24,505 bases of DNA from a virus (taxonomy: Duplodnaviria; Heunggongvirae; Uroviricota; Caudoviricetes). Shown here piece by piece: positions 2,279 to 21,594 of the stretch (the first letter of the stretch is position 1; each line of letters starts with the position of its first letter). Under the pieces are notes generated by a model. It worked only from the letters and a program-made list of their open reading frames with translations. It ran no database searches and had not been told where the DNA came from. Both the position numbers and the translations under genes were made by a program. The stretch is from the IMG/VR virus record IMGVR_UViG_2548876862_000002, positions 1-24,505 of that record, one strand, 5' to 3'.

Positions 2279-4753
2279 TTATTGCGGAGTGACATCCTGA
2301 GGTCGCCACCAGTATGTCTGATTAAACTCTTTCTTCGAACGTTGCTCCATTTTACGCAAATAGCCTGGTGAAAAATACTCCTGCATCTGGTTAAAGATCA
2401 TATGATCGAGAGCCGCCTTTAAGTACCAGAGATTCGCACCTGGCATCAAACCTTTCCCCAGCTTCACCAGATCACCACCAGTCTGCTCACTCTTCCCTTC
2501 CACAGCATTTAACGGTATGCCCTGAGCAATCTTCACTACGTCATCAACCAGACCAGCTACCGGGCCAAGCATCGACGCCAGTGCGCCGCTTCCGTACCTA
2601 GTGTGATCTGACAATAAAAAGTCACCGTAAAGGCCAAGACCACCACCTTTCAGTAGAGCACCAAGCCAGAATTTTGCGGCATCTTCTCCTGTCATCTCTC
2701 GAGGATTACGACCAGACGCAAGGTCGTTAAGTTGCTGCGACAAAGCGCCAAGAATGGTCGTACTGGCAATAAACGTCGCAATATATGCCGCACGACCACC
2801 AGCAGACGGCATACCCATAGCGCGTGACCAGTGACGCATAACCACCGAGATAGGGAACGATTTAAACAGGAAAACACTTCTCGTTAATTCACCTTTCCAT
2901 GTTCCACGCTGAATACCAGAACCGGTTATCAGTTGCTCACGTGCTCCCGGTGTAATAACAGCCATATCAACTTCTTCAGTTACGGCACCGAGCAGTTTAC
3001 GCATTGCCTCAAATTTCACGCGTTCAGGCTCACCAAGATGTTTAACTGCTGAATCAGGGATACGCATAATGCTTTCTGGTGTCAGCATCGTATTATTGCC
3101 GTTCCCCCAGTCCTCCTGTTGCGCCAGCTTCCATACGCTCCAGTCTGTGTCAGTAATCCCTTTGCTTTTCAGGATGCGAAAATCAGAATCATCGAGGCTA
3201 CGAAGGTCTGGTGTCCGTGACACTACTTCTCCCAGGCTTCCCATCATGGTTACGCCATAGGCGCGCTTGTGCGCATCTGACCATGCTGTAAGCCCACTGG
3301 CACGCATTACCGCCGTTGCAGCCCAACGAGACACAGACGGCCCCATATTATCCATCGCCCAGCGGTTAACGCTGCCAAGTAGAGATTCCATCGCCAGACC
3401 AGCGCGGCGCGCCCGTGCAAGTTCTGTACGGTTCGTTGGGTCCATAGCTTCAAGCTGGTTGCGGAATAACTGGTTCATTGGAAGGTTGGTAACCTTCGCA
3501 GACAGATACATGGTTCCAAGATCAGAGAACGATGACAGCAACGCGGATCCGAGTCTGCTGGCAACCAACCAGTTGCGGATATTGTCAGACCATCGCGCGA
3601 TGTGCGGATTCGCTACAGGCTGTGTCTTTCCGGAAATAAAGTTGTACAGATTCTCTGTGTTGTTCGCCAGCCGCTCGACTTTACCGGTTTTACTCGGGTT
3701 AGCTGTTGCCGTTTCTGCCTTCACCTGATCAAGAAGAGAGCGGAAAACATGATCGGGGTTTGGGCCATATGTTTCGACCAGTGCAATATCTTTACTGATA
3801 CCTTCAAGGTGACCGACCATGATTTCCCATAGAGAGCGATCGCCATAAAGTTGCTGATATTGCAGATAGGAATCTGCATCTTTGAAATGTATCTGTCGTG
3901 ATGCATTACCACGGTTAGCACGTGCGCCGGAAATTCGCATTCCGGTATCAGTAAGCTTATTCAGCCCACCAGTAGCGATCGTGTTATAAGCCTCTCCAAG
4001 AAATGCAGACAACTCGGCATCGTTCATCAGTTGTCCATCGGCTCGGGTATAATATTTGCGATCCAGCTTACCTATAACATCGCTAACCCATTTATCTTTT
4101 GATACCGCCCCAACCTTTTCCATAGAATGATGTTGAGGGATCCCCCAGTTTTCGAGATAGCCAATGTCCCCACCAGCATCATTAAACCGGCGGCGAAGTA
4201 GATCTGTCACTTCTCTCCACGCCTTAGCACCTTTTCTTGCTTTAGCATTGCCAGTATTTTGCCCTCGCATTTCATATACCAGGTCACGCACGCCCGCTTC
4301 ATCTTCAAACAGGCCAAAAAAGCGAGGATCAACTGCTTCAAATGCCTCCTGCAATTGACTCAATGCATAATCACGAGTGGCTTTTGTTCTGGATTCAACA
4401 GAGAGGAAATTCGATTTACCGTCTGCATTAAAAGCAATAGTACGGTTAAGAGCGCCAAGTTTCCCATCAGCCCCTTGATAGCTATTGATAAATTTATCCA
4501 ATCTCTGACGTGCGGCTATAGTGAGGGCCACACGACGTTTCTTTAATGCCGCTTCTCGCTGTAATTCTTCAGATGCCAATTGTGCTGCACGATACAACCG
4601 TTCTGATTCGGAAAGTTGTCGCCACGACATCGGGTCATCACGAGCAATGGAGCGCATATTTCGATAAATGCGGTCTTCAATGTTCTGTATTTCTCGCGCC
4701 GTTAACGTGCGCTGCGCCGCCTGCTGGACCGCTTGTATACATTCCTGTCTCAT
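2279..4753 (-). CDS. Internal virion / ejection (core) protein, 824 aa
   Basis: ATG at 4753 with SD GAGAGG 9 nt upstream. It is the last large gene of the virion operon, in the position of the C-terminal part of a T7 gp16-like ejection protein. Function is inferred from position and size only. Confidence 0.6.
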   Translation of the reverse strand: MRQECIQAVQQAAQRTLTAREIQNIEDRIYRNMRSIARDDPMSWRQLSESERLYRAAQLASEELQREAALKKRRVALTIAARQRLDKFINSYQGADGKLGALNRTIAFNADGKSNFLSVESRTKATRDYALSQLQEAFEAVDPRFFGLFEDEAGVRDLVYEMRGQNTGNAKARKGAKAWREVTDLLRRRFNDAGGDIGYLENWGIPQHHSMEKVGAVSKDKWVSDVIGKLDRKYYTRADGQLMNDAELSAFLGEAYNTIATGGLNKLTDTGMRISGARANRGNASRQIHFKDADSYLQYQQLYGDRSLWEIMVGHLEGISKDIALVETYGPNPDHVFRSLLDQVKAETATANPSKTGKVERLANNTENLYNFISGKTQPVANPHIARWSDNIRNWLVASRLGSALLSSFSDLGTMYLSAKVTNLPMNQLFRNQLEAMDPTNRTELARARRAGLAMESLLGSVNRWAMDNMGPSVSRWAATAVMRASGLTAWSDAHKRAYGVTMMGSLGEVVSRTPDLRSLDDSDFRILKSKGITDTDWSVWKLAQQEDWGNGNNTMLTPESIMRIPDSAVKHLGEPERVKFEAMRKLLGAVTEEVDMAVITPGAREQLITGSGIQRGTWKGELTRSVFLFKSFPISVVMRHWSRAMGMPSAGGRAAYIATFIASTTILGALSQQLNDLASGRNPREMTGEDAAKFWLGALLKGGGLGLYGDFLLSDHTRYGSGALASMLGPVAGLVDDVVKIAQGIPLNAVEGKSEQTGGDLVKLGKGLMPGANLWYLKAALDHMIFNQMQEYFSPGYLRKMEQRSKKEFNQTYWWRPQDVTPQ

Positions 4754-16063: not shown

Positions 16064-16360
16064 TCACTCCTGTTCACTGGCCTCTTTGGCCATCTTCAAA
16101 TACTGTTCAGGGCAATGCGCCATAACGCGCTGAAACAGTTCCAGCGCCAGATTGCGTTGCCCCTCATTAAATGCCATTGCCATAGCGTCCATCGGTGAGA
16201 TAGCGGAAAACACACGGCCTTTCTCCAGCACCGACCAGACAACGCGACGCCCCTGTTCACTGCTCATGACAAAGCGAATGTCATCAATTTCACGCTGCGC
16301 CATGTCACGTTGCTTACGGGCGTTTTCTTCTTTCAGTTGATCGTCTTCGTAATCTGTCAT
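16064..16360 (-). CDS. Hypothetical small acidic protein, 98 aa (head-assembly associated?)
   Basis: ATG at 16360 overlapping the portal stop (ATGA). Charged, helical composition. Confidence 0.55.
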   Translation of the reverse strand: MTDYEDDQLKEENARKQRDMAQREIDDIRFVMSSEQGRRVVWSVLEKGRVFSAISPMDAMAMAFNEGQRNLALELFQRVMAHCPEQYLKMAKEASEQE

Positions 16361-18036
16361 TGTGATTGCCCACCCTGACCACTAACTGCATTCGCCATAG
16401 CTGACAAAACACTCGGATCCGAAGTTTTAGCTTCGCTTAGCGTCTTGGCACCCTGTGCCGCCGCCATCCCCATCGCCATCATTTGTTGCTGCTGTTGTTG
16501 CTGTGCCCGTTGCTGGCGAGCCTGCTCAACCTGTTCCTGCGGAACAATGACGGTTGGAGACACTCCAGACATATCAGCGAATGCATCGATCGCCTGATCA
16601 ACGTTGAGTTTGTCGAGAGCTTCTGGTTTCGCTTGCGCAAGTTGACCAATGAAGTTGACCGTAGACGCCAGACTGGACAGGCCGATAGACTTCTGCGCCT
16701 GAGCCATGACGGAAATGTATTCGACCTTCAGGGGCATACCTTCCATCGCGTCAGGCGGTGGCGGCAGCATGTTTTTACGCACCATCATCGAGAAAGCGCG
16801 GTCAATGAGAGGATTAAGACATTCGTCGTTCAGACGCTCCAGTACCGGCCCCAACATCAGAAGTTTTTCTTCTTTCATTTCGATCACCGCTTCAACAGGC
16901 ATCGAGCGGGTATTGATGTTCTGCAACATCATGAACAGATCGACAAAGTAGGCGCTGTTAATGATTTGACGAGTGTCCTGAATGTCTGCCACCAAATCTG
17001 CTGTACTGGGGTTAACCAGATAAGCAGGCCTGAAGCCATCCTGACCAGTAATCTGATCGATATACGTGATGTCGCCAGGAAGAAGGGAGGCGCGCTGATT
17101 CTTGAGGGAAGTCGGAGCAACCATCGGCGGATTGGTGGCTTTATCAATCAACTGCGACTTGCGCTTCTGGAGAAGCTGCAATGCCTTAACAGGTCCAAGC
17201 GCCAGCATACCCGGGCATGATGATCCATAAACATCTTCGCCGTTAACTTCCCAGCGCGGAGCCATAATTGGAAACTCATCGAATCCGGACTCACGCAACA
17301 ACTTGTCGTTATCGCCACCAACCTCGTAATAAACCGATTTGAATGGCTTGTTCTTGCTATCCAGCTTCGATGTATCGCGGTCAATGTTCGGGTAAACCGA
17401 ATGCATCACTTCAATCCACTTCTCGTAGGTGCCGCTTTCCCACATGCTTTTTACGGATTCGCTGACGTTATTTAGCCCGAACTCCTGAACAAGCTGACGA
17501 ACAGTCATAGAGAACTTGCGAAAACAAGTGTCCACACTGCCACGAGGTGAGTTAGCCAGGTAGTAACTGCCTATCGGGAATGGCATTGTGCGAATGATGT
17601 CCTCGTCATCCTCCAGCACTGCCATTGCACCAGTGCTGTATGTGCCGAGGCTTCCGTATAACTGCGGCAGCGACTGATAGAGATTCGACTTATTGAACAT
17701 ATCGTTCATGCGGTTCTGCACCGCCTCAAGCCACAACTTAACAGGGCCATAATCCATCATTTCAGGATCTGGCGTAGCCAGGCGAAACCACGGACGCGCG
17801 GGGCTTGTGATGCCTGACATCATGCCGCTGGCGAGAGTGCGCGCCGCCATAGTCCCGGTCGAATCAATAATGCGTGTATTGCGTCGGTCGTTACGGTTGA
17901 CCTCAGAAGTCAGAAAGCGGGAACCACGCAGGTTGATGTAATCACTCAACTCGCGCCAGTGCGGCTCGAACGATTGACGCTCGCTTTCAAGTTGTGCGAA
18001 CTGTTTGTTCAATCGCTCTTTAGTTGTTTCCGCCAT
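16357..18036 (-). CDS. Portal (head-to-tail connector) protein, 559 aa
   Basis: ATG at 18036 with SD GGAG. The C-terminal Q/A/M-rich tail (QQRAQQQQQQQMMAMGMAAAQGAK) and overall size resemble the T7 gp8 portal as recalled. First gene of the structural module. Confidence 0.7.
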   Translation of the reverse strand: MAETTKERLNKQFAQLESERQSFEPHWRELSDYINLRGSRFLTSEVNRNDRRNTRIIDSTGTMAARTLASGMMSGITSPARPWFRLATPDPEMMDYGPVKLWLEAVQNRMNDMFNKSNLYQSLPQLYGSLGTYSTGAMAVLEDDEDIIRTMPFPIGSYYLANSPRGSVDTCFRKFSMTVRQLVQEFGLNNVSESVKSMWESGTYEKWIEVMHSVYPNIDRDTSKLDSKNKPFKSVYYEVGGDNDKLLRESGFDEFPIMAPRWEVNGEDVYGSSCPGMLALGPVKALQLLQKRKSQLIDKATNPPMVAPTSLKNQRASLLPGDITYIDQITGQDGFRPAYLVNPSTADLVADIQDTRQIINSAYFVDLFMMLQNINTRSMPVEAVIEMKEEKLLMLGPVLERLNDECLNPLIDRAFSMMVRKNMLPPPPDAMEGMPLKVEYISVMAQAQKSIGLSSLASTVNFIGQLAQAKPEALDKLNVDQAIDAFADMSGVSPTVIVPQEQVEQARQQRAQQQQQQQMMAMGMAAAQGAKTLSEAKTSDPSVLSAMANAVSGQGGQSQ

Positions 18037-18050
18037 TTCAATGACTCCGG

Positions 18051-18257
18051 TTACTGACCAAGCAGCGTTTTACCGCTGGTATTAGCGGTTGATGTGTCGC
18101 CCTGAGAACCGGTAAGCAGCGTAGAACTACGACCAGCAGCAGCGCGACGGCGACGTGTTTCTTCGTCGCGGGCATCAACAACGGCGGCATCCTGCTCCTG
18201 TGGTGCTGCCTGAACTTCTGGTGTTGCAGGCACTGATGGTGAGCTACCCATGCACAT
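18051..18257 (-). CDS. Hypothetical small Ala/Pro/Arg-rich protein, 68 aa
   Basis: ATG at 18257 with SD GGAG. The translation initiation region is almost identical to that of the portal gene. Low-complexity composition, so coding status is uncertain. Confidence 0.35.
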   Translation of the reverse strand: MCMGSSPSVPATPEVQAAPQEQDAAVVDARDEETRRRRAAAGRSSTLLTGSQGDTSTANTSGKTLLGQ

Positions 18258-18325
18258 ATCAATGACTCCGTACGCAATTAAATTATTACCAATTTAACCA
18301 CATATGATTTATTTATCGTAGATAG

Positions 18326-18354
18326 TTGACATTTAACGCACAAATTATTACCTT
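18326..18354 (+). promoter_or_regulatory. Sigma70-type promoter candidate: perfect -35 TTGACA, 17-bp spacer, -10 TACCTT
   Basis: TTGACA at 18326-18331 and TACCTT at 18349-18354 in an AT-rich, ORF-free region. It points toward the leader and the tRNA. Confidence 0.4.
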
Positions 18355-18684
18355 TTAGGTAACTAAAAAGTTCATTCCGGTTACTAACCTGACTGGCTTG
18401 TCGTTAAATTGAACAGGTGGAGTGAGCTTTTATTTTGAGCAGTACGGCGTATGGCACATGCGCCGATAGCGGTCTGGATACGTTTAAGGGGCACCCTCCC
18501 TTGCTCGAGCAAACGAACCAGGTAGCCGGAATGTGCAAGTCGAGCGGTTTTATTCCGCGCACGGGGATTCACCATCCCGGCGATTCGGTGTGACACCTCG
18601 GAAGAGACGAGGGTGCAACGATGAGAGCATTTATGGAGCTGCGACAAAGTGTGGTGCCTTAACAGGCTAAGTGCTCTCAGCGTT

Positions 18685-18761
18685 GTGGCATTAGCTCAGT
18701 CGGACAGACCAACCGCCTTCTAAGCGGTTGGTCGCAGGTTCGAATCCTGCATGCCACGCCA
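18685..18761 (+). tRNA. tRNA-Arg (anticodon UCU), argU-like, prophage-encoded
   Basis: Cloverleaf by hand: acceptor GTGGCAT/ATGCCAC (7 bp), anticodon stem ACCGC/GCGGT with loop CTTCTAA, T-arm GCAGG-TTCGAAT-CCTGC, discriminator G and encoded CCA. The D-stem has one mismatch. Strong resemblance to E. coli argU from the D-loop onward. Confidence 0.8.
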
Positions 18762-18804
18762 GAATCACGCCTAAGAACCGTGATGCCAGAAGTTCCAGGT
18801 GCTT

Positions 18805-18847
18805 GGCGGTGATGGTTTCCCTTGAAGGACTATCACCGCCCTTTTTA
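18805..18847 (+). terminator. Intrinsic terminator candidate downstream of the tRNA
   Basis: GGCGGTGAT (18805-18813) pairs with ATCACCGCC (18832-18840), followed by CTTTTT. The loop is long (18 nt). Confidence 0.45.
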
Positions 18848-18924
18848 CAGCAGGACGCCATTGCGATGACTTCATGCTGTAAACCAGTACAGCCACGGAA
18901 GGCATAACTCATTGCTTCCAGTTC

Positions 18925-18948
18925 GCCCGGTTCGCCGGGCATTTTTTT
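18925..18948 (+). terminator. Intrinsic terminator: GCCCGG-ttcg-CCGGGC plus T7 tract
   Basis: GC-rich 6-bp stem with a TTCG tetraloop, followed by ATTTTTTT. Confidence 0.6.
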
Positions 18949-19056
18949 GGCGTGATACGTCACAATTATGATATCGATGCAGATTACGACATACATGAAA
19001 AACATGTCATAGTATCTCCTGAGGTTAATTTCGATTCAAAAAGAGGATGATTTATA

Positions 19057-19404
19057 ATGATTAAAATCAATAACGTACGTGGTGCTAGCGTTAGCGTCAA
19101 CGGAGAAGACTTCACTGGTCATCATATTACGATTAACAATGGAAAAGTGATCGTTGATGGTGTCGAAAAAAATAGCAATCTTGGCGGACAGATTAACGTA
19201 ACAATTAATGGAAGCGTGGAAGGCGTTGAGATTGAAAATGGATCAGTGACTGTAAGCGGTGATGCACATTATGTGAAAACTATGTCTGGTGATGTCCATT
19301 GTTCCAATGTATTGGGAAATGTTAACACTATGTCTGGTGATGTAATCTGCGAAACTGTTGGTGGAAACGCCAGCACAATGTCTGGAAATATTATCAAGAA
19401 ATAA
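19057..19404 (+). CDS. Beta-solenoid-type repeat protein (115 aa), bactofilin-like repeats; moron gene
   Basis: ATG at 19057 with SD AGAGGA at spacing 9, and its own terminator. Internal roughly 60-bp DNA repeats give the protein repeats NTMSGDV...; G-x-V/I-x-G periodicity throughout. No signal peptide. Family assignment is tentative. Confidence 0.6.
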   Translation: MIKINNVRGASVSVNGEDFTGHHITINNGKVIVDGVEKNSNLGGQINVTINGSVEGVEIENGSVTVSGDAHYVKTMSGDVHCSNVLGNVNTMSGDVICETVGGNASTMSGNIIKK

Positions 19405-19489: not shown

Positions 19490-20965
19490 TTAAGCATAGG
19501 GATCGTAATCTGTGATGGCCTTGCCTTGCTGGTTCTGCTGACCGGGAATTCGCAGACGTTTCGACACAGGGAACGCAAACGTCAGCAGTAGCGCATCGCC
19601 TTTACCAGGAGAACGCCCAAGCCGCTCTTTGATATCTTCCTTCGGTTCGATAACGATTTTACCGTCCACTCGAACTTTGTACTCTGCCGCCGACAGGTCG
19701 TCCGCTGTTTCCTGGTCATCCAGCATGCCGCCGAGCCTCAGCCATGTCTTGCATGAGTTGAACATCTCCCCACGCTTGTTAAGCATCTGCGGGTCAGTGG
19801 ACGCACCGCCGAACGGAACAAGTTGCCATGTACGTCCCCAGCCATCACCGATTGACTTCAAACCGGTTCCGTAACCGAAGTCGATGAACACCGCATCAGC
19901 CTGATACTGGTCTTCAAAGTCAGCGATACGCTTCGCCATAATCAGATCGTCAGTGGTCTTGTTGCCGGTCCACAGCACCTTACTATGCAGCCCCTGCCGC
20001 AGGTATATCACAGCGTCATCAACACCGGAGTATGCCGGGTCAACGCCGATTATCACCGGAGCATGTGCCACCTGCGCAGCGGTTATCACCCGTTTCATTG
20101 CCTCGTCAGTAAGTCCGGTAGGGATAAACTGCAATTCAGATGCATCAGGGAATATGCCGCGCACACGGATTTTAACGAAGTCACTGTCTTCCCCGTAGTC
20201 ATCAACCCATTTCTGCAACTGCTGTTTGTTGGTGCCTTCCACCGTCCGGCTGTCAATCTGCGCAGTTTTCCAGCGGTGTTTATACTTGCGGAAACATTCA
20301 CGGAATCGCCCGGTATTACGCGTCGGGTTTCCGAACGCCACCCAAATAATCTCAGTGTCTTCGTCCGTAAGCGCACCCTCGGCAACTTCCCACACCAGAT
20401 CCGCAATGTTCGACGCTTCATCGAATACCACGATGATGCGTTTGCGCTCGTTGTGTAGTCCTGCGAATGCCTCAGTGTTGTGCTCAGACCAGGGGATTGC
20501 GTCAGCTCGCCACCGCTTGTCGTGTCCAGGATCATTGCTGTACATCGCAGTAGCGGTACAGGTAAACCAGTCTTTCGTGATAGCAAGGTTCGACCACTTG
20601 ATAATTTCCGGCCAGGTCTTCGTTCGTAGCTGGTTGTCGGTGTTGGCGGTCACCACGACCTTACAATCCTCGCAAGTGGACATGCCCCAGTTGATCAGCA
20701 TTGAGATGAATGCGGATTTACCAATACCGTGACCAGAAGCGCGTGCCAGCATAAGCGGCTGATAGCGCGTCTCTGGATTCTGCAGGTGATCACGTATCTC
20801 TCGGAACGCATCAGCCTGCCACTGACGTGGGCCGGTAGCATGTGCCAGTTCAGTCCCCTCTTCCCCCCACGGGAACGCATAGAGGGCATAGCCAAGCGGA
20901 TCGTGAGTGAACCCTGCAATATCCTCGATCAACTGCTCTTCAGGAGATAACGCTGTATCTTTCAC
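19490..20965 (-). CDS. Terminase large subunit (ATPase/nuclease), 491 aa
   Basis: GTG start at 20965 overlapping the small-subunit stop (GTGA). Walker A-like GHGIGKS and Walker B-like IIVVFDEAS motifs. Position is immediately after the small subunit. Confidence 0.8.
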   Translation of the reverse strand: MKDTALSPEEQLIEDIAGFTHDPLGYALYAFPWGEEGTELAHATGPRQWQADAFREIRDHLQNPETRYQPLMLARASGHGIGKSAFISMLINWGMSTCEDCKVVVTANTDNQLRTKTWPEIIKWSNLAITKDWFTCTATAMYSNDPGHDKRWRADAIPWSEHNTEAFAGLHNERKRIIVVFDEASNIADLVWEVAEGALTDEDTEIIWVAFGNPTRNTGRFRECFRKYKHRWKTAQIDSRTVEGTNKQQLQKWVDDYGEDSDFVKIRVRGIFPDASELQFIPTGLTDEAMKRVITAAQVAHAPVIIGVDPAYSGVDDAVIYLRQGLHSKVLWTGNKTTDDLIMAKRIADFEDQYQADAVFIDFGYGTGLKSIGDGWGRTWQLVPFGGASTDPQMLNKRGEMFNSCKTWLRLGGMLDDQETADDLSAAEYKVRVDGKIVIEPKEDIKERLGRSPGKGDALLLTFAFPVSKRLRIPGQQNQQGKAITDYDPYA

Positions 20966-21558
20966 TGATTACCATCCTGACGTTCTTTGAGTCGCTTCCT
21001 GGCTGCTGCTATGCGATCAGCAATTGTCACATTCACATTAACATCCAGACGTTCTTTGAACGCGTTGACATCAACATGCTTACCAATCAGCTCAAGGTTC
21101 TTCACCTTGTCAGGCCATTTAATTTTTTTGAGGATTGTCTCTATCGAATCCTCGTTCATGTTCATGATGGTCGATGACAGATCAAAGCCACTAAGCGTAG
21201 TGCGCCAGATTTTCGGCCACTCACGGATTGGTTTAAGGCTCCCATCGTCGTTGAGGATGTCGATCACGTCCATCTGGTCGATCTCCACCAGGCGCATGAG
21301 AACGTAATCAGCACTGACGCGCATTCGTTTGTTGCGCTCCTCCATCAACTCGGCAATCCGTTTTTGAATGCGTTCATCGCGCATCATGACACTGGCTTTA
21401 ACTGCCGCTGTATTTGGGGAGAATCCTGCGTTAATCGCTGCCTGAGTCTGGTTTTCAGGCGTTTTGATGTATGACTGGCAATAAGCCTCCTGCATTGCTG
21501 TTAGTGGCTTAAATTGCGTTGATTTGCGTTTATAGGTTTTAGGTTCAGTAGGCATCAT
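20962..21558 (-). CDS. Terminase small subunit (about 198 aa)
   Basis: The track start at 21636 is TTG and would span the upstream terminator hairpin. The ATG at 21558 (MMPTEPKTYK...) has SD GGTGG. Basic N-terminus and position upstream of the large subunit. Confidence 0.6.
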   Translation of the reverse strand: MMPTEPKTYKRKSTQFKPLTAMQEAYCQSYIKTPENQTQAAINAGFSPNTAAVKASVMMRDERIQKRIAELMEERNKRMRVSADYVLMRLVEIDQMDVIDILNDDGSLKPIREWPKIWRTTLSGFDLSSTIMNMNEDSIETILKKIKWPDKVKNLELIGKHVDVNAFKERLDVNVNVTIADRIAAARKRLKERQDGNQ

Positions 21559-21565
21559 AACCACC

Positions 21566-21594
21566 GTGGTAATAGTTACCGTTGTGGTAATAGT
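21566..21594. repeat. Tandem direct repeats GTGGTAATAGT(T)ACC x2 immediately upstream of the terminase small subunit start
   Basis: Copies at 21566-21576 and 21584-21594, identical over 11 bp, 18 bp apart. Confidence 0.5.

Follow-up and report, generated by a model that had tools for sequence, protein, structure and literature searches.

A Conserved Structured RNA behind Early Promoters of Enterobacterial Phages, a Possible put-like Antiterminator

Early gene expression in lambdoid phages is the textbook case of anti-termination. Many lambdoids lack N, and outside the small put family we know of no account of how N-less lambdoids pass their early terminators. The put RNAs, of ~70 nucleotides (nt) and two stems, bind the zinc-binding domain of the β′ subunit of RNA polymerase. 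No protein factor is needed for them to suppress intrinsic and Rho-dependent terminators, and their effect, which requires no lasting tether to the nascent transcript, reaches at least 10 kb (PMC9378689). For phage LLS, an N-less lambdoid, a recent survey speculated that a mechanism mediated by put RNA may be at work (PMC12315714). Here, we describe a structured RNA of ~175 nt, termed the core, on the plus strand of IMG/VR virus record IMGVR_UViG_2548876862_000002, whose positions 1 to 24,505 were analyzed in full and are called the window. The window is from a phiV10/epsilon15-type podovirus of the genus Uetakevirus. The core lies between a putative promoter and a tRNA gene and is followed by a closing hairpin, H6; it takes the position of put in N-less lambdoids and differs from put in fold. 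All features are listed in Table 1.

Conservation and fold of the core

A first-pass annotation of the window had read the ~330 nt between a promoter and the tRNA gene as a candidate structured noncoding RNA rather than an ordinary tRNA leader, with several hairpins and no credible long open reading frame (ORF). BLAST searches bore this out. The stretch 18444–18684 is conserved well beyond Uetakevirus, with 70 to 98% identity in unrelated phage backbones. Identity is 97 to 99% in phiV10-like phages, ~82% in the lambdoids mEp460, cdtI, Ayreon, and 2H10 and in phages converting to Shiga toxin (Stx) 2c and Stx2a, and 70 to 75% in Klebsiella, Salmonella, and Enterobacter phages, and that of the core is ~80% in phages P1, P7, D6, and SJ46. 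An absence of conservation of 18360–18680 in related prophages, which would have spoken against such an RNA, is clearly not what we found. The element matches 1,837 of 5,426 complete Escherichia coli genomes (1,472 at ≥80% coverage), and among the E. coli matches listed the annotation shows either the adjacent tRNA-Arg alone or nothing at all beneath the match; the element itself is never annotated. Carriers of the core include Shiga-toxin-converting phages, phage P1, and O157 typing phages, and a 38.7-kb record of E. coli NADC1036 contains a 261-nt test stretch of the window at 100% identity.

Thirty-one representatives, <93% identical and 148 to 180 nt long, were aligned with MAFFT, which is blind to structure. 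On the core model, 94.1% of the cells pair, versus 29 to 52% with the partners slid by 1 to 3 columns; ten core pairs carry compensatory double changes, and the observed covariation score was matched by none of 500 column shuffles. About 105 of the 836 paired cells (~12.6%) are G·U, which would be A·C on the minus strand, and this share of roughly one in eight fixes the plus strand. The hairpins noticed earlier are present, while single-sequence folding is only modestly better than that of shuffled sequences (z of −3.1/−2.0 for 330 nt and −2.2/−2.4 for 242 nt), and thermodynamic folding alone did not tell the two strands apart. We therefore regard the comparative evidence, not single-sequence folding, as the decisive argument for a structured RNA. 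These data indicated a genuine structured RNA encoded by the plus strand.

The same data bear on the idea of a minus-strand feature, either an RNase III site in the late mRNA between terminase and portal or a small protein gene. The epsilon15 record does annotate an RNase III site here on the late-gene strand, the minus strand folds about as well as the plus strand thermodynamically, and it carries an 87-amino-acid (aa) ORF. On that strand, however, the G·U pairs become mismatches; the element is co-directional with its flanking genes in phage P1 and the lambdoids, the lengths of its copies differ by non-multiples of 3, and epsilon15 has a truncated stump only. This explanation is extremely unlikely. 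More generally, the ORFs in the ~324 nt between promoter and tRNA are all short (52 and 45 aa on the plus strand, 87 and 52 aa on the minus strand), and core lengths in relatives span all three classes modulo 3, so the core holds no conserved reading frame. Deposited hypothetical-protein ORFs run across the RNA in mEp460 (mEp460_037, L003 2443–2811, minus), Tyrion (gp54, L010 1411–1572, plus), and mEp390 (mEp390_036, L013 1511–1753, plus), where L numbers denote the homologous loci compared; these ORFs are probably spurious.

A covariance model built from the alignment, R1, scored 144.6 bits (E = 7e-41) on the window over 18443–18616. A second scan of viral sequences with a pattern that leaves out the 19-mer GGUAGCCGGAAUGUGCAAG found this 19-mer almost invariant nonetheless and gave extra compensatory variants of helix P1. 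RNAalifold proposed a candidate second pseudoknot between the loop of helix P1 (GCACAU) and AUGUGC of the 19-mer; both sides are near-invariant, and their rare single changes are uncompensated. The long-range helix GGCACCCUC/GAGGGUGC of the single-sequence minimum-free-energy (MFE) fold was rejected, being not conserved and clashing with the covarying P5. A CsrA sponge acting through GGA motifs and a resemblance to Y RNA, tmRNA, or RNase P RNA were considered as well and dropped as unsupported.

The covariance-model search called for in the first-pass annotation gave no known family on the core. At the gathering threshold, Rfam 15 found only the tRNA in the window, and at E ≤ 10 no match overlaps the core; the nearest listing, STnc300 over the promoter and leader (18312–18439), scored 21 bits against a gathering threshold of 80, with an E value of 3.5 that is at chance level. 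Across 12 homologous loci at E ≤ 0.1, the core and its 3′ modules were without a match, though C4, IsrK, int-alpA, and tRNAs were detected elsewhere in the same loci. No description of the element came up in full-text literature searches, whether for phage names, for terms of its context, or for the exact 19-mer read in either orientation. As far as could be determined, it is undescribed.

To gauge breadth, 596 Gb of genome contigs were scanned with TGGCACATG-N6-7-AGCGGTC, a pattern of 16 specified bases. Of the first 100 loci, ~10 were confirmed by the covariance model, and those named are Enterobacterales; ~550 chance matches are expected for this pattern. Stenotrophomonas phage vB_SmeS_BUCT708 (L008) carries a core nearly identical to the Klebsiella-type copies, directly 3′ of a helix-turn-helix (HTH) repressor and with several additional CCGG-GAAAGA-CCGG hairpins. 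This copy reflects either a true spread beyond Enterobacterales or a wrongly assigned host. At the other extreme, epsilon15 (L004 2046–2136) retains helix P1 and half of P2 and has no tRNA; the stretch annotated there as an RNase III site partly overlaps this remnant. Because its 3′ modules vary or are absent and epsilon15 keeps only a stump, the core is a conserved unit that is accessory and mobile between phage backbones.

Placement behind early promoters and ahead of terminators

The invariant feature of the element is its position, that of early expression under repressor control. A CI-type repressor (Peptidase_S24/HTH) lies directly upstream on the same strand in 64 of 135 loci, and 39 of the 135 show the portal arrangement of Uetakevirus. 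Two lambdoid immunity types share one order, in which the cI stop is followed by the cI terminator, then by a promoter with the phage's own operator sequences, and then by the core. The gap between cI and the core of mEp460 holds, besides the cI terminator, two 15-bp sites, TTGCATATCTCGCAA and TTGCATAATGCGCAA, 24 bp apart, which match the operator-like TTGC-N7-GCAA site of the cI-cro gap; the second overlaps the promoter TTGCAT-17-TATCTT. In a Stx2c phage, which has another repressor, an operator of the phage's own type, TGTACC-N5-GATACA, overlaps the promoter TTGACA-16/17-CATAAT. Since it carries the phage's own operator-type sites, the lambdoid promoter before the core is taken to be the backbone PL/OL, and the core appears to be the first thing transcribed from it. 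For the same reason, that the promoter bears CI-type operators, we rejected expression in lysogens, an idea suggested by the core following cI. Helix P1 begins ~5 to 10 nt past the predicted start in several lineages, and overall the core lies a few to ~90 nt after the early promoter. In phage P1, it sits midway in the ban operon, which C1 controls, between tRNA-Ile and ban.

The promoter of the window, described earlier as strong, likewise carries an operator-like site. Its −35 hexamer is perfect, and seven Uetakevirus relatives show no change in the TTGAC and TTACC..GGTAA blocks. The −10 hexamer TACCTT, however, agrees with TATAAT at three of six positions (T1, A2, and T6), for which reason a consensus scan of 18000–19200 called zero promoters, and strength is thus unproven. 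It looks repressor-controlled instead, with a putative operator in the palindrome TTACCTTTTAGGTAA, whose counterpart is annotated as a repressor site in the epsilon15 record. The motif TTACC-N5-GGTAA occurs five times in the window against 0.29 expected, and the five palindromes are probably the operator set of a single phage regulator. Two of them form a tandem pair (21558–21590) near the start of the small-terminase region. Between the predicted start and the core, Uetakeviruses have a leader hairpin, L0, that is absent from L262, L302, L307, L279, and others, where the core begins ~5 to 10 nt past the predicted start.

Past the core come terminators and genes that run in the same direction. 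The base of T1, GGCGGU...ACCGCC-UUUU, is a conserved part of the cassette, and this motif lies 3′ of the core in 83 of 141 distinct loci. In Uetakevirus relatives, the next ORF begins 15 to 17 nt past the U-run of T2, which leaves no space for a promoter ahead of it. A count of perfect-stem terminators did not separate downstream from upstream regions; the counter misses long-loop terminators, and the statistic was discarded. The slot after T2 holds differing small genes across Uetakeviruses. In Klebsiella phage ST512-KPC3phi13.3 (L006 2197–2718), the slot gene encodes a Tad2-like Thoeris anti-defense protein (PF11195, E = 4e-26). The window has a 115-aa ORF (ORF115) there, which has no Pfam match and is likely cargo of the same transcription unit as the core; it may be an unrecognized accessory or anti-defense gene.

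This placement invites comparison with put. In O276/HK022, the annotated order is cI, the PL −35/−10 (−10 at 911–916), and putL at 932–994, that is, 16 nt after the −10. The core occupies the same slot, right after the operator-controlled early promoter that follows cI in N-less lambdoids, as the operators of mEp460 and the Stx2c phage and the O276 order show. Both RNAs are promoter-proximal, structured, and upstream of terminators and a long early operon. No N gene is annotated in the core-carrying lambdoids mEp460 and Stx2a_1447, and the PL operon of such phages extends for ~5.8 kb, crossing the cassette terminator and reaching recombination genes, xis, and int. A BLAST search with putL hit 19 phage records, none among the listed core carriers, and the two RNAs are mutually exclusive among the phages compared. 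The core differs from put in having five helices and a pseudoknot and a single copy per genome, where put has both putL and putR. Unlike put, it also occurs in non-lambdoids (P1-like, Uetakevirus, and Lastavirus). In most cases, H6 and a tRNA or tRNA-like module come after the core.

On the anatomy and placement of the element, from which alone we infer a function, we tentatively favor a put-like role without homology to put, in which the core would be a cis-acting leader RNA of a new class, one that renders RNA polymerase resistant to terminators. The transcript would start at the repressor-controlled early promoter, with the core and H6 as its 5′ part. While still nascent, the folded core would bind in cis to the host RNA polymerase that is transcribing it, and the bound polymerase would resist intrinsic terminators, as well as Rho on the long untranslated stretch. 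Transcription would then continue past the tRNA or tRNA-like module, cross T1/T2, and reach the genes beyond, namely, ORF115 here, the early-left operon including xis and int in N-less lambdoids, and ban in phage P1. Read-through of terminators is required in every context, because they precede genes without room for a promoter and because the lambdoid PL operon crosses the cassette terminator.

A wider form of this proposal, to which we give a little less credence, is that the core represents a new, larger class of protein-independent processive antiterminators. It would explain early-left expression in N-less lambdoids (including Stx2a-, Stx2c-, and Stx2k-converting phages), the ban operon of phage P1, and the accessory/anti-defense locus of Uetakeviruses, with the tRNA-shaped modules described below as a second, separate new RNA class.

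Several observations weigh against an antiterminator. The core shares neither sequence nor structure with put, R1 finds nothing in HK022, and 148 to 180 nt compares with ~70 nt. A PR-side copy, the equivalent of putR, was not seen: R1 finds one copy each in mEp460 (24.5 kb), Stx2a_1447 (13 kb), and the window, and BLAST places it once in each phage record. The cassette has its own conserved terminator, as an ordinary RNA gene would; just one small ORF lies downstream in this Uetakevirus; and the element is dispensable, as the stump in epsilon15 illustrates. Finally, the mEp phages were collected as Nus-dependent (PMC11893012), whereas put is factor-independent.

The core was also compared with the nut site of lambda, whose placement with respect to PL it shares. 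Its P5 loop, GAAGAGA, resembles the purine-rich loops of boxB, as do the CCGG-GAAAGA-CCGG hairpins repeated in relatives. The core is far larger than nut, though, and its carriers are without an N gene; neither a single-stranded CGCUCUUA-like boxA nor a boxB pentaloop (GAAAA/GAAGA) nor an N protein was found. A boxA-like UGCUCU does occur in the 3′ strand of H6, where it is base-paired, and covarying variants have other sequences in its place; a boxA role for UGCUCUUU in H6 was dropped as unsupported.

A leader ahead of terminators could alternatively be a ligand- or tRNA-sensing attenuator of the riboswitch type that governs read-through. The pseudoknotted fold of ~170 nt with near-invariant junctions would suit such a device. 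Its nearest terminator, however, is at least 190 nt off and beyond the tRNA, no expression platform overlaps the fold, and the downstream genes are unrelated between phages; we consider this reading quite improbable.

The closing hairpin and its exchangeable 3′ modules

H6 pairs its ends over at least 13 bp in 19 of 22 distinct variants with differing sequences, amounting to at least eight sequence solutions; examples of end pairs are GAGAGCA/UGCUCUC, AAGAGCA/UGCUCUU, GGUAGCUCAC/GUGAGCUAC, and AAAAGGCG/CGCCGUUU. In the window, its last base is position −1 of the tRNA. Among 143 loci, 29 have tRNA-Arg(UCU) at a fixed distance, 17 are P1-like with a tRNA(CAU) just upstream, and 96 are without a tRNA. 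The core is thus not tied to tRNA, nor is it the tRNA-like fragment that was suggested as an alternative; rather, the tRNA is one of several interchangeable 3′ modules, or payloads. Such interchangeable content is in keeping with an element whose target is the polymerase and not a particular neighbor.

In tRNA-less loci, different modules fill the slot after H6, which is bounded by GUUGUGG and CCACAAC. The one seen most often is shaped like a tRNA: the scaffold has an acceptor-like stem, D-like and T-like arms whose loops are complementary, and a hypervariable insert of 40 to 150 nt replacing the anticodon arm, in the form GUGGUGA-AU-GCGC(AGGCUGAU)GCGC...GCCGG(AGAUCAGCA)CCGG-YCACCAC. The D-like and T-like loops covary to GCUAAU/AUUAGC in L090. 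The scaffold is without an Rfam match and is apparently a second undescribed RNA. Some phages (SopranoGao, PAT1, and mEp390) have tandem H6-payload units. Other loci lack both H6 and payload, and the core is followed by a convergent moron with its bidirectional terminator or directly by a ribosome-binding site and an ORF; phage P1 has the core only. Just 5′ of the core, phage P1 and lambdoids (L001 ~2987–3000, L003 2488–2500) have AUUUGGUUGUAAC, an "emptied" GUUGUGG..CCACAAC, Uetakeviruses (window 18410–18443) have an H6-like hairpin ending GGAGUG(A/C)GCUUU..CAGGUGUG, and L265 and L280 have a small hairpin, GUUGUGA..UCACAAC. Judged by sequence, these look like relics of the same modular junctions.

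The H6-tRNA junction is central to the main competitor of a cis-acting antiterminator, namely, that the element is a stable trans-acting early phage RNA of ~240 to 325 nt. RNase P cutting at +1 of the tRNA or tRNA-like module would mature the payload and make the H6-capped 3′ end of an RNA whose 5′ end is the transcription start, and the released core would bind a conserved host factor for host takeover or anti-defense. H6 ends exactly where such a cut would fall, and at the conserved junction GUU|GUGG an acceptor-like stem is retained by every payload type, type A having the full tRNA-shaped scaffold; processing of this kind would account for the junction and for payloads that look like tRNAs. 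The cassette has its own terminator, and some payload-less variants have one ~15 to 30 nt from P5. A 5′-proximal hairpin (helix P1) and a 3′ hairpin are typical of stable RNAs, the Tad2-like ORF of a relative places anti-defense cargo at the locus, and the nearly invariant loops and junctions suggest a conserved binding partner. On the other hand, in L075 and phage P1 the core continues directly into an mRNA, and both an RNase P site and a terminator are absent; the core lacks its own promoter and always uses the operator-bearing early promoter of the backbone, and no partner protein co-occurs with it; the ORF clusters beside it are portal, CI repressors, terminase, and DUF2303. We rate a trans-acting RNA as somewhat less likely than the put-like reading, and the two are not mutually exclusive. 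Because put is active untethered, an RNase P cut at the tRNA would not abolish a put-like activity. The processing substrate proposed in the first-pass annotation is a live sub-hypothesis here.

Known RNAs offer partial parallels. As in MALAT1-mascRNA and the RNase P-matured phage RNAs C4 of P1 and P7 and CI of P4, a tRNA or tRNA-shaped module stands directly 3′ of a hairpin-ended RNA, so that one RNase P cut would make both ends. The core does not match the Rfam C4 family (RF01695), which is detected elsewhere in the same lambdoid genomes, and no antisense target is evident. GOLLD and ROOL are often associated with tRNA genes, and the core resembles them as a phage-borne, ornate orphan RNA that sometimes adjoins or is fused to a tRNA. 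Unlike them, it is much smaller, belongs to Enterobacterales phages, has a fixed promoter-proximal position, and has no Rfam match.

Where core and tRNA are fused directly, as in Uetakeviruses (29 of the 143 loci), H6 stacks on the acceptor stem, and the 17 P1-like loci have tRNA(CAU) nearby. The core could accordingly be a scaffold for expression, folding, or processing of the downstream tRNA or tRNA-like RNA, a specialized pre-tRNA leader. This is improbable given the 96 tRNA-less copies, several of them without any payload, and given that the tRNA of phage P1 is upstream of the core and that other phage and host tRNAs do without such a leader. Nor does the element look like an ordinary pre-tRNA leader, which is short, poorly conserved, and tRNA-dependent: it spans ~324 nt, and its core is kept in tRNA-less loci and 3′ of the tRNA in phage P1.

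Payload swaps between identical flanks raise yet another explanation, in which the cassette works at the DNA level, H6 (CAAC...GUUG) and the boundaries GTTGTGG/CCACAAC serving as loosely attC-like recombination sites and the fold being secondary. The tandem H6-payload units and GGTTGTAAC, which resembles an emptied junction, are in keeping with this. The attC consensus, however, is RYYYAAC/GTTRRRY, which the boundaries (C)CACAAC/GTTGTGG do not fit; no IntI or integrase is found among the neighboring ORF clusters, G·U pairs and compensatory changes point to selection on RNA, and the core is left unexplained. Such a cassette is a very improbable account.

Setting in the window and significance

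The element forms a short plus-strand unit between gp3 and the large terminase, opposite in orientation to the late genes.

Table 1. Positions of the features discussed (window coordinates unless a locus is named)
Feature	Position	Strand	Remarks
TTACC-N5-GGTAA copies	1058, 1438, 18348, 21558, 21576
Portal gene	16357–18036	−	
Small gp3 gene	18051–18257	−	
Putative sigma-70 promoter	18326–18354	+	−35 TTGACA 18326–18331, 17-nt spacer, −10 TACCTT 18349–18354
Operator-like palindrome TTACCTTTTAGGTAA	18348–18362		overlaps −10
Predicted transcription start of putative promoter	near 18361	+	
Leader hairpin L0	18367–18430	+	Uetakevirus only; MFE helix; partly conserved in Uetakeviruses
Conserved structured core RNA	18443–18616	+	~175 nt, five helices and pseudoknot
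Helix P1	18445–18465	+	CGGCGUAUG-GCA-CAUGCGCCG
J	18466–18472	+	conserved AGCGGUC region
P2 base	18473–18476 with 18519–18522	+	covarying; interior variable
19-mer GGUAGCCGGAAUGUGCAAG	18521–18539	+	near-invariant
P3	~18544–18558	+	variable
P4	18564–18567 with 18575–18578	+	GGGA/UCCC
Pseudoknot	18570–18573 with 18587–18590	+	P4 loop CACC with GGUG
P5	18596–18600 with 18608–18612	+	CCUCG-GAAGAGA-CGAGG; loop GAAGAGA, 7 nt
Closing hairpin H6	18617–18684	+	AACGAUGAGAGCA...UGCUCUCAGCGUU; 14 bp with one A·G, variable tip
tRNA-Arg(UCU)	18685–18761	+	encoded CCA; ARAGORN; Rfam tRNA 62.5 bits
Post-payload hairpin	18764–18784	+	AUCACG...CGUGAU; same block after non-tRNA payloads in Klebsiella phage loci
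Intrinsic terminator T1	18805–18850	+	14-bp stem, CUUUUU; terminator scan
Intrinsic terminator T2	18925–18948	+	GC-rich 6-bp stem, U7; terminator scan
ORF115	19057–19404	+	115 aa; 3′ of T1/T2; no promoter-like site of its own in scan of 18000–19200
Large terminase gene	19490–20965	−	
tRNA-shaped scaffold loci	L003 2733–2872; also L007, L009, L010, L041, L064, L078, L080 (payload region)

In mEp460 (L003 206–394) and the Stx2c phage (L005 275–463), the C4 antisense RNA (RF01695) and IsrK (RF01394) lie adjacent to each other, beside a Rha antirepressor gene; the pair is a separate RNA-based immunity module of those genomes.

Taken together, the core occupies the slot for which the 2025 survey could merely guess a put-like mechanism (PMC12315714). 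Under either an antiterminator or a stable RNA, annotation should stop placing spurious ORFs such as mEp460_037 and Tyrion gp54 across the element. Should the core modify RNA polymerase, enterobacteria would have a second known class of natural RNA with that ability, and the induction and excision of Stx prophages would depend on an RNA fold. As a stable trans-acting RNA, the core would instead rank with the most widespread of the orphan phage RNAs of E. coli.

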